Origin: a virus
UHGV virus genome: UHGV-0380108
Strand: one strand, 5' to 3'
Length of the DNA: 5,521 nucleotides
The position numbers were made by a program, and so were the translations under genes. This document shows positions 1-5,521 of the stretch, one piece after another (the first letter of the stretch is position 1; every line of letters begins with the position of its first letter). The notes under the pieces were generated by a model. It had not been told where the DNA came from, made no database searches, and saw nothing but the letters and a program-made list of their open reading frames with translations.

Positions 1-2
1 AA

Positions 3-374
3 AAACTATCGGCAGAAATCAGGAAGATAAACGCAGACGCATGCAGCGGAATGGCCCAAGCGGCATATTATTACGCAGCGGGCGAAGCCCAAAAAGCGGA
101 AGCAAAAATGCTTGAAGCGAAAAAGAGAACCGAGGAGGCAACCGCAGATCTGCGAGAACTTCAATATTGGACCGAAATAGCGAATACGATTATCAGACTG
201 GCACAAATAGTGGGGAACCTGGCAATCGGAGGGAAAACAGGAAAACTAATCAGAGAATACACGGAAAAAAGGATGAATGAAACACCCCCCAAAAATTCAT
301 CAACGGTAACGCAGCACTATGATCCAGAAATGAAATTTAAGGGAGTAGACAAAACTGTGACAACAAAATGGTAG
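3..374 (+). CDS. 3' portion of an ORF already open at the window start (frame 3, no stop from base 3 to TGG-TAG at 372..374). Most likely the C-terminal ~124 aa of the VP2-like pilot/minor capsid protein continuing from 4687..5521 across a circular junction. Otherwise an independent 107-aa ORF starting at ATG 51.
   Basis: Translating frame 3 from base 3 gives KLSAEIRKINADACSG-MAQAAYYY... with no stop upstream of the track's ATG at 51. The ORF at the 3' end of the window (4687..5521, frame 1) ends on codon position 1 (g). Joining g + aa (bases 1-2) gives GAA, and the next codon starts at base 3, so the two ORFs are in the same frame across a 5,521-nt circle. Composition is A/K/E-rich and helical, as expected for the distal part of a pilot protein. 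Confidence 0.5.
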   Translation, partial: KLSAEIRKINADACSGMAQAAYYYAAGEAQKAEAKMLEAKKRTEEATADLRELQYWTEIANTIIRLAQIVGNLAIGGKTGKLIREYTEKRMNETPPKNSSTVTQHYDPEMKFKGVDKTVTTKW

Positions 375-413: not shown

Positions 414-1682
414 GTGTGTCTATATCCAAGTATCATAGAGAACCCAAAGTACGCCAAATCGAATAAAAACGGCAAAAGGGCAAGGGATCGCCGTCTAAGG
501 TGGATCCAAATTCCATGTGGATATTGCGAAGAGTGCAGACGCGCAAAAGCAAATGAATGGAGAGTAAGATTGATGGAAGAAGTAAAAAATAATCCTAAAA
601 ACTCTATATTTGCAACGCTGACATTCTCCGAGGAAAGCCTAAAAAAACTAGAATATGACGAAAAAGAACCGAACAAAGCACCTCAGAAGGCAATCAGCCT
701 ATTCAGAAAACGATGGTGGAAAAAGTATAAAACACCACTCAAACACTGGCTAATCACAGAAATGGGGCATGACAACACCAAGAGGATACATCTGCACGGC
801 ATCATATGGACAGAACTAACAGAGGAACAGTTCGAAAAGGAATGGGGGTACGGCTGGATATTCTTTGGGTATGAAGTAAACGAGAAAACAATAAACTACA
901 TCGTAAAATATGTGACAAAGAGAGACGAAGATAATCCTGAATTCAACGGGAAGATATTCACTTCAAAAGGGATTGGAGCAAGCTATATAAACAAGTACTC
1001 GCTTAACAGGCATAGATATCAGGATAAATTTACAGAGGAAACATACAAGGCAGCTTCAGGAACAAGAATAGCGCTGCCGACATACTACAGGCAGAAAATA
1101 TGGACAGATCAAGAACGAGAGAACCTCCGAATCATAAAGGAGGAACAACAGGTGAGGTATTATAACAAAACCCCTATCAAAGTAGAAACACTAGAACAGT
1201 ATAAAGAGTATGTACACGCAGTAATATATTGGCAGTCAATTAAAAAGTATGACAGAAAGAGAAAAAAAAGAGATATGCAAAGGATATGCAGATCTAATCA
1301 TAAAGAAAGAAAAGTTAATCCGAGAAATATGGGAAGTAGAGTTTGCAATCAGAAAAATGGAAGATGTGCTGACGCGGAACAAGGTTATAAAGCCTTCGAA
1401 GGAAACATAGGGGACAGATCCAGTAATCTTGTAAAGCTGATCGGCGCAAACAGAGTGTCCCAACGGAACTTCAAATATGAGGGAACATACTACGTAACAG
1501 AGGATGGAGAGACGTACGACAAAGAATACGTAGACACTCATAAACCACTGAGAACCGGCATCGACTTCTACGAGGTGAGCAATTGGATATACAACGAAAG
1601 AAAACAATTGTACGAACCTATCGTCAGAAGGATAGTAATGATCAAAAACACCAACACTCAATTATCACTAAACTATGAATGA
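414..1682 (+). CDS. Rolling-circle replication initiation protein (Microviridae VP4 / phiX174 gpA-like HUH endonuclease), 422 aa, GTG start, with ~190-aa C-terminal extension
   Basis: N-terminus MCLYP... resembles the conserved M-x-C-x-x-P start of gokushovirus VP4, which supports GTG 414 as the start. A CxxC zinc-finger-like CGYCEECRRAK lies at aa 35-42. HUH motif I is FATLTF (nt 609..626), motif II is the H-x-H element HLHGIIW (nt 789..809), and motif III carries the catalytic tyrosines YIVKYVTK (nt 897..920). Downstream are SKGIG and LPTYYRQKIW elements typical of VP4. It is the only long + ORF in the region. The stop TGA at 1680..1682 overlaps the next ORF's start. Confidence 0.88.
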   Translation: MCLYPSIIENPKYAKSNKNGKRARDRRLRWIQIPCGYCEECRRAKANEWRVRLMEEVKNNPKNSIFATLTFSEESLKKLEYDEKEPNKAPQKAISLFRKRWWKKYKTPLKHWLITEMGHDNTKRIHLHGIIWTELTEEQFEKEWGYGWIFFGYEVNEKTINYIVKYVTKRDEDNPEFNGKIFTSKGIGASYINKYSLNRHRYQDKFTEETYKAASGTRIALPTYYRQKIWTDQERENLRIIKEEQQVRYYNKTPIKVETLEQYKEYVHAVIYWQSIKKYDRKRKKRDMQRICRSNHKERKVNPRNMGSRVCNQKNGRCADAEQGYKAFEGNIGDRSSNLVKLIGANRVSQRNFKYEGTYYVTEDGETYDKEYVDTHKPLRTGIDFYEVSNWIYNERKQLYEPIVRRIVMIKNTNTQLSLNYE

Positions 1683-1845
1683 AAAAGTAAAGAAGATCGT
1701 AAAATGGATCGCGGTAATCGCAGCTGCCATCGGCGCAGCAGCTGCCGTGATCATAGAACAGGGATGCACTCACAAGCACCACCTCAAGGCAAGCGGCATC
1801 AAAGTCGACACAATCGAAGTAACAACAACAACAAAAATTAAATAA
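1675..1845 (+). CDS. Small 56-aa protein with one predicted transmembrane helix (MNEKVKKIVKWIAVIAAAIGAAAAVIIEQGCTHKHHLKASGIKVDTIEVTTTTKIK); candidate membrane/lysis-associated protein
   Basis: ATG at 1675 lies in the overlap ATGAATGA with the Rep stop (1680..1682). The ORF is open in frame 1 to TAA at 1843..1845. A 20-residue uncharged hydrophobic stretch (nt ~1696..1755) is flanked by K-rich N-terminal and charged C-terminal segments. It is tightly packed against the next ORF (taa c ATG). It falls below the length threshold of the supplied ORF track. Confidence 0.45.
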   Translation: MNEKVKKIVKWIAVIAAAIGAAAAVIIEQGCTHKHHLKASGIKVDTIEVTTTTKIK

Positions 1846-1846
1846 C

Positions 1847-2152
1847 ATGAACAAAAAATTCAGAAATCAGCTACTCGCTGAAAGCGGAAAAAAAGAGGCA
1901 GAAATCAAAAGTGTAAACCTCGAAATCGAAGAAAGAGTAGAGTCGAAAAACGGCATATTCGTACTGGTCCGCAACAAGAAAAACAAATGGGTGATCACAA
2001 TGTGCGGCGCGATCATAAACGGAAAAGAATTCAACACTAAAGAGGAAGCTGAAGAACACATAGCTAAAAAAGAGTGGGAAGACATCCTGACCGCAACATT
2101 CGTATTCATCCTGCACGTAAACGGAGAAATGAAAAACACTGAAAAAGAATAA
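1847..2152 (+). CDS. Hypothetical protein, 101 aa (MNKKFRNQLLAESGKKEAEIKSV...), no recognisable family
   Basis: ATG lies 1 nt after the previous stop and ends 3 nt before the capsid gene start. Orientation and codon usage match the flanking phage genes. The N-terminus is K/E-rich and the C-terminal half is hydrophobic (ILTATFVFILHV). Its position between Rep and the major capsid gene is where small accessory/DNA-binding ORFs sit in gokushovirus-like genomes. Confidence 0.5.
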   Translation: MNKKFRNQLLAESGKKEAEIKSVNLEIEERVESKNGIFVLVRNKKNKWVITMCGAIINGKEFNTKEEAEEHIAKKEWEDILTATFVFILHVNGEMKNTEKE

Positions 2153-2155
2153 GCC

Positions 2156-4204
2156 ATGAAAAAAACACTAGGAGGAGACAGAATTCGAAGCGAAAGCAAA
2201 ATGGAAGTATATCTGCCTAATTTCGGCAGATCGTCTCACAACGTAGGAAAGATAATCCGAACATCACAGGCATGCGGCACGATCGTTCCCTATTGGTGTC
2301 AAATAGGTATGGATGGAACGACGTTCTACATCGATATCACAACGAAGGTGAAAACGCTGCCAACAACCGGGCCTGTATTCGGAAGCTTCAAACACCAGAT
2401 CGATGTATTCGTAATTCCGATCAGGCTCTACATAGCAGCGCTGCACAATAATGCTCTAGGAGTAGGGTTGAATATGGATAAAGTATTACTACCACAATTT
2501 CAAGTGTATACAGCTAATACGTCAATTTACGAAAACGACTTCAACAGAGGGCAAGTCAATCCAAGCTCGCTGCTCTCATACCTGGGGATAAAAGGGTTCG
2601 GATACTCCGAAGTCAATCAATACCTCCGAAGATTTCCTGCAATATTCAATCTGGCGTATTGGGATATATTCAAAAACTACTATGCAAATAAACAAGAAGA
2701 ATATGCATATGTAATCACTGGAATAAACCATATCTGGAAGTCGATCTTCATAGGAGATGGATACGTTTGGGATAAAGAATGGTACGAAAACTCAGACTTA
2801 CCATACGAGGTTACTCCGACAGAACAGAAACCAAAGTACATCAGACTGGAATTCGAGGAAAAGATCTCTCCCGAAGAAGTCGGTGAGATACAGTTCCTGA
2901 CAAATAATCCAAACACGCCAACAGTAGCAAGCAACAGGATAACAAAGCTTGGAGACTCCTTTGTGTTTGAACGAACAGATCCGGAGGCACCGGGACTTAG
3001 AGAACCGAGCAATCCGAGAAAGGCAACCAACGTTTACATGTACAAAATCAAGAAGCCCATTAAATTTGCATACAGAATAACCACAAGCAGCGGGGAGCAG
3101 ATGATAACAATGCCGGACAACAAGAAGATCCAGCTAACGCCATTTCCATTAAAAAACATCGACGATATGCGAACTTCAATACTGGCAGCTCCCAGTTCTT
3201 CGGCGTTTGTGATGGATAACAGCAAAATGCCGTACGCAGCAGCAACGAAAACTCTAGATCTGCCAAATCATGACTACTCAAAAACATATCACAGCTCAAA
3301 TGCATGGTATTCACAAGCAGGGCTGGCAGTGAAAACATATCTGAGCGACAGGTTCAACAATTGGCTGAACACAGAATGGATCGACGGAACAACAGGAGGA
3401 ATCAATGCGATTACGGCAGTAGATGTAAGCGACGGAAAACTCACTATGGACGCTCTAATTCTCCAGAAAAAAATATTCAATATGCTGAACCGCGTGGCTA
3501 TTACAGACGGCACCTACCAAGCATGGAGAGAGGCGACATACGGAATCAGAAGCGCAACACTACCCGAATCTCCTGTGTTCTGCGGCGGAATGCAAAGCGA
3601 AATCGCATTCGACGAAATTGTATCGAATTCGGCAACAGACGAAGAACCGCTGGGAACACTTGCCGGCCGAGGAGTTGCGACCATGTACAAATCCGGAAGA
3701 GGGTTAAAAATCAAATGTACAGAACCCAGTATAATCATGGCTCTAGGATCAATTACACCTCGAGTTGATTACAGCCAAGGCAACAAATGGTGGACAAGAC
3801 TGCAAAGCATGGATGACTTCCACAAACCAACATTAGACGCAATTGGGTTCCAAGAACTGATAGCAGAAGAAGCAGCTGCATGGAGTACGGAAACGACTGA
3901 GGACTACACACACACGTATCAATCACTAGGAAAACAGCCGTCATGGATCGAATACACAACGGATGTGAATGAAACATACGGCGACTTTGCCGCAGGAATG
4001 CCATTAGCATTTATGTGCTTGAACAGAGTGTACGAACAAGACGTGGACGGTACAATCGGCAATACCTCAACGTATATTGACCCTACGATATACAACAACA
4101 TATTTGCAGAGTCGAGAATGAGTTCGCAGAACTTCTGGGTACAAGTAGCATTCGATGTAACAGCACGCCGGGTAATGTCAGCAAAACAAATTCCAAATTT
4201 ATAA
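2156..4204 (+). CDS. Major capsid protein (Microviridae VP1 / phiX174 F-like single jelly-roll capsid protein), 682 aa
   Basis: It is the longest ORF in the window. The N-terminal region FGRSSHNVGKI...FVIPIRLY recalls the conserved N-terminal block of gokushovirus VP1 (RSxHSF...FFVPLRLIW), from memory. Size (600-780 aa) and position fit a microvirus VP1 carrying a large inserted surface loop. An alternative start at ATG 2201 (MEVYLPNF...) is possible, but the AGGAGG at 2169..2174 is 26 nt upstream of it and too far to act as an SD. Confidence 0.88.
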   Translation: MKKTLGGDRIRSESKMEVYLPNFGRSSHNVGKIIRTSQACGTIVPYWCQIGMDGTTFYIDITTKVKTLPTTGPVFGSFKHQIDVFVIPIRLYIAALHNNALGVGLNMDKVLLPQFQVYTANTSIYENDFNRGQVNPSSLLSYLGIKGFGYSEVNQYLRRFPAIFNLAYWDIFKNYYANKQEEYAYVITGINHIWKSIFIGDGYVWDKEWYENSDLPYEVTPTEQKPKYIRLEFEEKISPEEVGEIQFLTNNPNTPTVASNRITKLGDSFVFERTDPEAPGLREPSNPRKATNVYMYKIKKPIKFAYRITTSSGEQMITMPDNKKIQLTPFPLKNIDDMRTSILAAPSSSAFVMDNSKMPYAAATKTLDLPNHDYSKTYHSSNAWYSQAGLAVKTYLSDRFNNWLNTEWIDGTTGGINAITAVDVSDGKLTMDALILQKKIFNMLNRVAITDGTYQAWREATYGIRSATLPESPVFCGGMQSEIAFDEIVSNSATDEEPLGTLAGRGVATMYKSGRGLKIKCTEPSIIMALGSITPRVDYSQGNKWWTRLQSMDDFHKPTLDAIGFQELIAEEAAAWSTETTEDYTHTYQSLGKQPSWIEYTTDVNETYGDFAAGMPLAFMCLNRVYEQDVDGTIGNTSTYIDPTIYNNIFAESRMSSQNFWVQVAFDVTARRVMSAKQIPNL

Positions 4205-4208
4205 CACC

Positions 4209-4532
4209 ATGAAAACAGCAATAAATAGAAAAGGATGCATCAACAATCCAAAACTCACATACCAAGCAGAACCAAGGGAGGTAAAACTGAGAAAAATAAT
4301 CAGCGGAGAATCCAACAATATGGATGACGGGGTATTCCCAACAATTTACACAGAAAAGAAAGACGGAGTACTGCCCGAGTATGACATAAGAACAGATCGA
4401 TTTGAGATAGCAATAGACGCGATGGATAAAATCAACCAGAGCACAGCGAACCAGATCGCGAAGAACAAGGGCGAAACTGAAAGCGTGAAAACTTTCGGGA
4501 CAGAAGTAAAAACCGATCCCGAAAAGAGCTAA
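4209..4532 (+). CDS. Hypothetical 107-aa acidic protein; possibly an internal scaffolding protein (VP3-like)
   Basis: ATG lies 4 nt after the capsid stop. Same strand and codon bias as the neighbours. The segment VLPEYDIRTDRFEIAIDAMDKI loosely resembles the P-x-Y-G/D-D...Y-x-E-A-x-N core I recall from gokushovirus VP3 scaffold proteins. That recollection is weak, so the product call is tentative. Confidence 0.45.
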   Translation: MKTAINRKGCINNPKLTYQAEPREVKLRKIISGESNNMDDGVFPTIYTEKKDGVLPEYDIRTDRFEIAIDAMDKINQSTANQIAKNKGETESVKTFGTEVKTDPEKS

Positions 4533-4561: not shown

Positions 4562-4593
4562 AAAGAGGGGGGATATTTCCGCCCCCCTCTTTT
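4562..4593 (+). terminator. Perfect 11-bp G/C-rich hairpin (AAAGAGGGGGG / CCCCCCTCTTT, 9-nt loop ATATTTCCG) followed by T; candidate intrinsic terminator and/or structural origin or packaging element
   Basis: Bases 4562..4572 are the exact reverse complement of 4582..4592, with six consecutive G:C pairs. An A-tract lies upstream and TCTTTT downstream. The hairpin sits in the only substantial non-coding region of the genome (4533..4686), 30 nt after the stop of the 107-aa ORF. Confidence 0.5.
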
Positions 4594-4611: not shown

Positions 4612-4680
4612 TGACACAGTGCGGTAGACGTTTATACATATATAACGAGAACATAAGGTATAAATTCTTTTTAGAAAAGA
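4611..4680 (+). promoter_or_regulatory. Candidate promoter region for the VP2-Rep-capsid transcription unit
   Basis: GTGACA (4611..4616), a 5/6 match to the sigma-70 -35 TTGACA, is followed after 16 nt by TATACA (4633..4638) inside an AT-rich run TTTATACATATATAAC. A second TATAAAT lies at 4659..4665, about 22 nt upstream of ATG 4687. No Shine-Dalgarno sequence precedes this start or most other starts in the window. Confidence 0.2.
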
Positions 4681-4686
4681 ACGAAA

Positions 4687-5521
4687 ATGGACTTCAAAAA
4701 ACTACTAGAACTACTCGAGAAAGGAAGCAGCATGATGAACCCTATCTCAGGTATCATTGGCAACGCATCGGGAATTCTCAATATGCTAGGCATAGGCAGG
4801 AAAAAACAGATACAGCAGCAGAAAGAAATGGTGGAGAACGCAGCTCAAATAAACTACAAATACGGAGAAATGGCGGCGGAGAACGCGTTCGAAAGGCAGC
4901 AGGTGTTATATAACAGAACCTACCAAGACCAAAGCTACGCCAACCAAGTTGCACAAATGGATGCGGCAGGATTATCTCCCGGCCTAATGTACGGCAAAGG
5001 AGGTGCCGGAGGCGGAGGCGCCGGTTCAACAACAGGTGCTCCAATAGGAGCAACAGGAGCTGCCGGTGCAGGAGCAGCGGCCGATCCAAACATGCAGCTG
5101 CAGGCACTGATGTCCCTGCGACAAATACGAATGAATGAACGGAAGAATGAAGCGGAAATCAATCTGCTCAATACGCAGGCAGAGGCACTCAAGGCGGAGG
5201 CAGGCAAGAACCAGGAGGAAACCCAGTCAATAATTGAAAAGAGACTATGGGAAGTAAAGCAAGAGATGTTTAAAGGATGGAAAGGCTTCATCGATACAGC
5301 GAACCAACTGTGGGATCAGATGGTAAAATGGCAGCCCACAGAAAAGGTAACAATCGACGGCAAGGAGGTAGAAGTACCGAAATACTTCGAAATAGAAGAT
5401 GATAAATTCGGGAAGATCATATTTGGAGAGGAATCATTTCAAGGCGGCATGATGAAGGCCGAAAAGCAAATCCTCGAGGGAACAGCAGCAATTAAAACTC
5501 TAGAAAGCATATACGCAGACG
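4687..5521 (+). CDS. DNA pilot / minor capsid protein (Microviridae VP2, phiX174 H-like), 5' portion (278 codons), running off the 3' end of the window
   Basis: No stop occurs in frame 1 from ATG 4687 to the window end. The translation MDFKKLLELLEKGSSMMNPISGIIGN...QIQQQKEMVENAAQINYKYGEMAAENAFERQQVLYNRTYQDQSYANQVAQMDAAGLSPGLMYGKGGAGGGGAGSTTGAPIGATGAAGAGAAADPNMQ... carries the gokushovirus-VP2 hallmarks I recall: a Q-rich segment, AGL(N/S)PxLMYG and a Gly/Ala-rich linker, followed by a coiled-coil-like E/K/Q-rich region. The ORF is missing from the supplied track only because it lacks a stop inside the window. Confidence 0.8.
   Translation, partial: MDFKKLLELLEKGSSMMNPISGIIGNASGILNMLGIGRKKQIQQQKEMVENAAQINYKYGEMAAENAFERQQVLYNRTYQDQSYANQVAQMDAAGLSPGLMYGKGGAGGGGAGSTTGAPIGATGAAGAGAAADPNMQLQALMSLRQIRMNERKNEAEINLLNTQAEALKAEAGKNQEETQSIIEKRLWEVKQEMFKGWKGFIDTANQLWDQMVKWQPTEKVTIDGKEVEVPKYFEIEDDKFGKIIFGEESFQGGMMKAEKQILEGTAAIKTLESIYAD

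Follow-up and report, generated by a model that had tools for sequence, protein, structure and literature searches.

Microviridae genomes are circular and measure ~4.4–6.5 kb. Members of the family are circular single-stranded DNA (ssDNA) phages with the core genes VP1, VP2 and VP4, and of the three corresponding protein families, that of VP2 is highly divergent and the most so (PMC3394797). The closest annotated Microviridae genome in GenBank to the one analyzed here is bajarodmic virus 724 (PQ006946.1), which was obtained from rodent faeces. It is a circular record of 5,528 nt that encodes, on one strand, a major capsid protein, a small hypothetical protein, a DNA pilot protein, a replication initiator and two further small hypothetical proteins.

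The same order is found in the window, by which we mean the whole 5,521-nt stretch of virus genome UHGV-0380108 that was analyzed. All long open reading frames (ORFs) lie on the plus strand and follow one another as VP1, a 107-aa ORF, VP2, Rep and small ORFs. VP1 has 57% amino acid identity over 100% length to the major capsid protein of bajarodmic virus 724. For VP2, identity drops to 35% in a BLASTP alignment limited to residues 1–228, and the Rep of bajarodmic virus 724 has 303 aa compared to the 422-aa predicted fusion in the window. At the nucleotide level, a megablast search of GenBank phage records with the whole window as query returned two matches only (48–67 nt, both within VP1) and no close annotated relative. 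In its size and its circularity, the latter established at the level of assemblies, the 5,521-nt unit falls within the range of the Microviridae. Taken with the evidence below, the window almost certainly represents a circular Microviridae genome from the human gut, complete in one 5,521-nt unit without redundancy and opened at codon 279 of VP2.

Gene content and the pilot protein

The features of the window are collected in Table 1. Base usage shows a strong skew (A 39%, T 18%), and this skew, together with the location of the genes on one strand, gives indirect hints of single-stranded virion DNA.

Table 1 Features of the 5,521-nt window (positions are those of the window)
Feature	Position	Strand	Remarks
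VP2, 3′ part	1..374	+	AA of codon 279, codons 280–402 and TAG (372–374); wobble at position mod 3 = 2, in phase with the 5′ part
VP4/Rep, predicted fusion (422-aa ORF)	414..1682	+	VP4/Rep (~414–1325, GTG start) plus in-frame downstream 119-aa ORF (ATG, 1329–1682); stop codon lost
53-aa ORF (MTEREKKEICKGYADLIIKKEKLIREIWEVEF...)	1249..1410	+	Conserved; out of frame with the Rep tail, which it overlaps; conserved ATG, open in 9/9 genotypes
56-aa hydrophobic small ORF	1675..1845	+	Also gene-called in relatives; no Pfam or PHROG match
101-aa small ORF	1847..2152	+	Also gene-called in relatives; no Pfam or PHROG match
VP1, major capsid protein, F-protein type (682 aa)	2156..4204	+	Pfam PF02305, 8.5e-10 (above cut-off); PHROG 514, 6e-39
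107-aa ORF between VP1 and VP2	4209..4532	+	No Pfam or PHROG match
11-bp G/C hairpin followed by TTTT (AAGAGGGGGG...CCCCCCTCTT)	4562..4592	+	−19.9 kcal/mol; stem bases identical in 6/6 aligned genomes
VP2, 5′ part (DNA pilot protein)	4687..5521	+	Codons 1–278 and first base (G) of codon 279; wobble at position mod 3 = 0

The first-pass annotation had labeled the ORF joined across the window ends as VP2, the pilot protein, and this label is upheld by PHROG families, annotated pilot genes and gene order alike. The joined protein matches seven PHROG families, every one described as 'pilot protein for DNA ejection' (best E value 1.3e-6, residues 53–345). Searched with tblastn against GenBank Microviridae genes labeled 'DNA pilot protein' or 'similar to VP2', it gave E values of up to 2e-15 over residues ~14–242. 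In the circularized window, in the contigs of relatives and in PQ006946.1, VP2 is located between the capsid and Rep genes. By this position and by its membership in the PHROG pilot families it resembles the Microviridae VP2 proteins and protein H of phiX174. It shares with full-length homologues a conserved N-proximal block (NYxYGE..AAxNAxxRQ..Y..SYQDQS..AGLSxGLMYGGGG) that is followed by Gly/Ala-rich and long charged, helical-looking segments. As judged by these sequence comparisons, the joined protein is a member of the microvirus pilot-protein family.

No Pfam model matched VP2, and searching the PDB by sequence gave chance-level matches only, phiX174 H not being among them. VP2 of the window differs from phiX174 H, and from any solved structure, in having no detectable sequence match to it. 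The best PDB hit (E value 0.036, residues 15–135 of a 587-aa parvovirus capsid chain) was taken as a low-complexity match of the Gly/Ala-rich stretch of the query and was discarded. With regard to the membrane-active N-terminal segment and oligomeric coiled-coil tube of pilot proteins, VP2 was covered by a hydropathy scan, which located moderately hydrophobic Gly-rich segments at residues ~17–38 and ~336–356.

The centre of VP1 (window 2700–3250, residues ~180–365) is the most variable part of the relatives, with a pairwise difference of 0.23–0.32 compared to ~0.1 elsewhere. This part has a weak wobble bias and contains two in-frame 3-nt indels, and it is in keeping with an insertion loop on the capsid surface that is under relaxed or diversifying selection. 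At the position of the 107-aa ORF, the closest annotated record carries a hypothetical protein of similar size; we infer a possible scaffolding (VP3-like) role for this ORF.

Among the non-coding parts of the genome, 4533–4686, upstream of VP2, is the most conserved. This stretch contains the G/C hairpin of Table 1 and, between the hairpin and VP2, a conserved GTAGACGTTTATACATATATAAC block. The hairpin looks like a terminator, and it may also have a role in replication or packaging.

The VP2 reading frame across the window ends

The 3′-terminal ORF extends from ATG 4687, the earliest possible start of VP2 because an in-frame stop codon (4672–4674) precedes it, to position 5521. With a length of 835 nt, its last base is the first position of a codon. 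The first-pass annotation had noted that bases 1–2 of the window complete this codon as GAA and that the frame then runs to 374, and recomputation gave the same result: the split codon 279 reads G/AA (Glu279), bases 1–2 supplying AA, and the joined ORF (4687..5521 plus 1..374) comprises 1,209 nt, that is, 402 aa and the stop codon TAG. Across the 5521/1 join, the VP2 frame is open for 1,218 nt from stop to stop, while the other five frames are open for just 24–147 nt, making the VP2 frame the sole one of six that is open from end to start. The window ends had also been described as free of terminal redundancy, which was borne out, as no exact suffix/prefix match of ≥5 nt was detected and the best overlap was 18 nt at 61% identity. 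By itself, the phase match is weak evidence, because with an open ORF at each end it arises by chance in about one-third of cases. The join is nevertheless well beyond chance because of three further observations, detailed below: identical contigs that contain it, a junction probe that aligns without gaps and a wobble phase that is continuous across it with a synonymous bias.

A protein of ~402 aa had been predicted from the joined frame, and its exact 402-aa sequence (P0121) is present in public assemblies as a single called gene on seven ENA contigs. Five of the seven (L014–L018) were compared to the window in full. They derive from five samples (ENA accessions ERZ19693014, ERZ28635940, ERZ1755716, ERZ1755646 and ERZ914245) and include MEGAHIT contigs built at k109 and k127, two SPAdes-style NODE contigs and one scaffold; samples whose names give a source are from the human gut. 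When aligned to a doubled window (window + window), each was 100.000% identical over 5,471–5,630 nt, with 0 mismatches and 0 gaps, and the 5521/1 join was internal in every one. The contigs have the same VP2, VP1 (P0135) and fused Rep as the window and differ from it only in the point of linearization, some of them retaining k-mer end overlaps. A single mis-assembly behind all five contigs is not plausible given the five samples and several assemblers.

The same contigs define the cut point and the length of the unit. Their first bases correspond to window positions 304, 2872, 3564, 3464 and 3493 (L014–L018); as they open at different positions, the cut point is arbitrary, in line with the earlier suggestion of an arbitrary cut inside VP2. 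The further suggestion that the window is one exact genome unit of 5,521 nt was confirmed with two contigs that have end overlaps: L014 (5,630 nt, MEGAHIT k109, flag_3) minus its 109-nt exact end overlap and L015 (5,576 nt) minus its 55-nt end overlap both reduce to 5,521 nt.

Coding signal continues across the join. In six genomes, substitutions peak at third codon positions on both sides, at position mod 3 = 0 before 5521 and at position mod 3 = 2 after 1. Within ±50 codons of the join, 21–30 synonymous codon differences were counted compared to 7–12 nonsynonymous ones, a ratio as in the rest of VP2. One conserved protein is encoded by the joined ORF, and purifying selection acts on it across the join.

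Homology is likewise continuous. In a collection of 5.8 billion proteins, more than 100 full-length VP2 relatives were found with 89–93% identity and 100% coverage, nearly all of 402 aa, and almost all of the contigs carrying them are ~5.5 kb long. For more distant relatives, 1.84 billion representatives were searched exhaustively with HMMER, a 93%-identical protein (P0001) serving as the seed. Homologues at 28–43% identity aligned in one stretch over residue 279 (for example, over residues 14–398, 19–375, 6–376, 13–363 and 52–400). An end of VP2 homology near residue 278, which the first-pass annotation had regarded as a sign against the join, was looked for in these distant homologues, and they cross residue 279 unbroken. 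In the multiple alignment, features encoded by 3..374, namely a hydrophobic Gly-containing segment at ~350 and a T-x-x-Y-D...G tail, match the C termini of contiguous homologues. Alignments to annotated pilot proteins end earlier, at ~242 in tblastn and at 228 in BLASTP to the closest one; tblastn alone leaves the junction undecided because its alignment covers residues ~14–242 only.

Circular unit and competing explanations

Relatives with 82–87% nucleotide identity (L001–L013 and L020) are colinear with the window. Their end overlaps of 30, 54, 78, 98, 99 or 127 nt leave units of 5,522–5,530 nt. Six IMG/VR contigs from more distant relatives also contain, in their interior, the exact 38-nt string that spans the join. 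The evidence for circularity comes from assemblies, not reads. Three other explanations of the window were weighed.

One is that a circle was mis-trimmed, a few bases having been lost or duplicated at the join, so that the continuity of the frame would be partly an artefact. Heuristic overlap removal is common for circular contigs, and the unit lengths of the relatives do differ by 1–9 nt. However, besides the five identical contigs without a gap or mismatch over the join, a 300-nt junction probe (the last 150 plus the first 150 bases) aligned gap-free inside seven contigs of relatives. Whole-genome alignments place every length difference at an internal indel (375, 1399, 1595, 1669, ~2911–2932, ~3082–3091, 4554, 4581, 4656 and 4671), never at the window ends; the six aligned genomes all give 835 + 374 nt, a 402-aa product and Glu at the split codon. 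We regard mis-trimming as barely credible. Somewhat less remote, although still extremely improbable, is that the window is a linear fragment of a larger entity such as an integrated prophage or a longer virus, with ends that are in phase by coincidence. Such a coincidence would be the one-in-three event noted above, microvirus-related proviruses reportedly exist in Bacteroidetes genomes, and one relative (L011, IMGVR_UViG_3300007801_000137, 8,554 nt) does carry foreign DNA beside microvirus DNA. Against a linear fragment stand the five 100% identical contigs that read through the join, and the relatives, which are stand-alone contigs of ~5.5 kb whose ends overlap as in a circle. No integrated copy was detected among 185,579 species genomes, the sole match being an unintegrated, stand-alone scaffold of 5,673 nt (L020). 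L011 itself consists of ~3.9 kb of related microvirus followed by foreign DNA; the break at ~3934 falls inside VP2 (~window 5356), away from the window ends, and the foreign part has 50–55% GC and encodes a minor tail protein Z domain, a PAPS reductase and a C5 DNA methylase fragment. From the site of the break, the GC content and the gene content, L011 was rejected as a sign of a larger genome and interpreted as a chimera with tailed-phage DNA.

The third explanation leaves the window as one repeat unit but takes the sampled molecule to be a head-to-tail concatemer, either a rolling-circle intermediate or a product of multiple-displacement amplification. A circle and a tandem array look alike in assemblies, one relative (L002) is a 10,104-nt scaffold in which 1.83 units lie in tandem, repeating perfectly every 5,522 nt, and small circles are preferentially amplified in whole-genome amplification (PMC3394797). 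Microvirus concatemers, however, themselves arise on circular templates, the Microviridae package their genomes as monomeric circles (PMC3394797), and most of the assemblies consist of one unit plus a k-mer-sized overlap, which is what a circle normally leaves in de Bruijn graph assembly. A concatemer is thus very improbable, if the least so of the three.

In the circular reading, which we prefer, assembly opened the circle arbitrarily between the first and second bases of VP2 codon 279. By analogy with other Microviridae, the circular ssDNA would be nicked and religated in rolling-circle replication by Rep, with its HUH and YxxKYxxK motifs, and would be packaged together with VP2 in a T=1 capsid of VP1. 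VP2 would then travel with the DNA and conduct it across the envelope of the next host at infection.

The circular join is an ordinary assembly effect and not new biology. Microviruses are known to be circular and assemblies of this exact genome are numerous, so no biological question is opened or settled by it. The consequences concern annotation: the UHGV-0380108 record should be treated as a complete genome and not as a fragment. Either it should be rotated, or VP2 should be entered as a single 402-aa gene that runs across its origin; gene callers in linear mode would miss or truncate VP2.

L020 (NZ_JACWEU010000076.1), a stand-alone scaffold with redundant ends, occurs in an assembly labeled Acinetobacter lwoffii SU1904. 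It is 82% identical to the window at the nucleotide level and 83% identical in VP1 at the amino acid level. This scaffold is probably a contaminant or carried-over phage, and hence gives no evidence on the host.

The Rep region

The Rep part of the 422-aa ORF was identified by family matches (Pfam PF23343, 5e-11; PHROG 942, 1e-32) and by two motifs, HUH (HLHG, nt 789–800) and YIVKYVTK (YxxKYxxK, nt 897–920), which we presume to be comparable to those of phiX174 A. In all eight other genotypes, one or two in-frame stop codons are present at ~1270–1325; in these genotypes Rep has ~290–303 aa, and the 119-aa ORF, although in frame with it, is separate. Codon 1323–1325 is TGA in six of the eight, compared to AGA in the window. 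None of the stop codons that end Rep remains in the lineage of the window, and Rep is therefore predicted to be a fusion protein. The genotype with the fused Rep is 100% identical in five samples. Stop-codon readthrough or recoding was considered for the TGA/AGA difference at 1323–1325 and rejected, because several relatives carry extra stop codons elsewhere in the frame and the T/A change is synonymous in the overlapping frame.

This overlapping frame belongs to the conserved 53-aa ORF (Table 1). Over 1201–1350, the wobble phase of substitutions shifts to the frame of this ORF, which is absent from the genes called on the contigs of relatives. We tentatively suggest, at somewhat less than even confidence, that the 422-aa Rep might be a natural, circulating gene fusion created by stop codon loss, found in only one of nine genotypes and involved in a three-way overlap that includes the conserved small protein encoded at 1249–1410.

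The putative start codon of Rep, GTG at 414, is covered by six relatives, of which five (L008, L009 and L011–L013) keep GTG and one (L010) has ATG. Gene callers on related contigs start Rep at ATG 573, with the loss of 53 N-terminal residues that include a CGYCEEC motif (nt 516–536).
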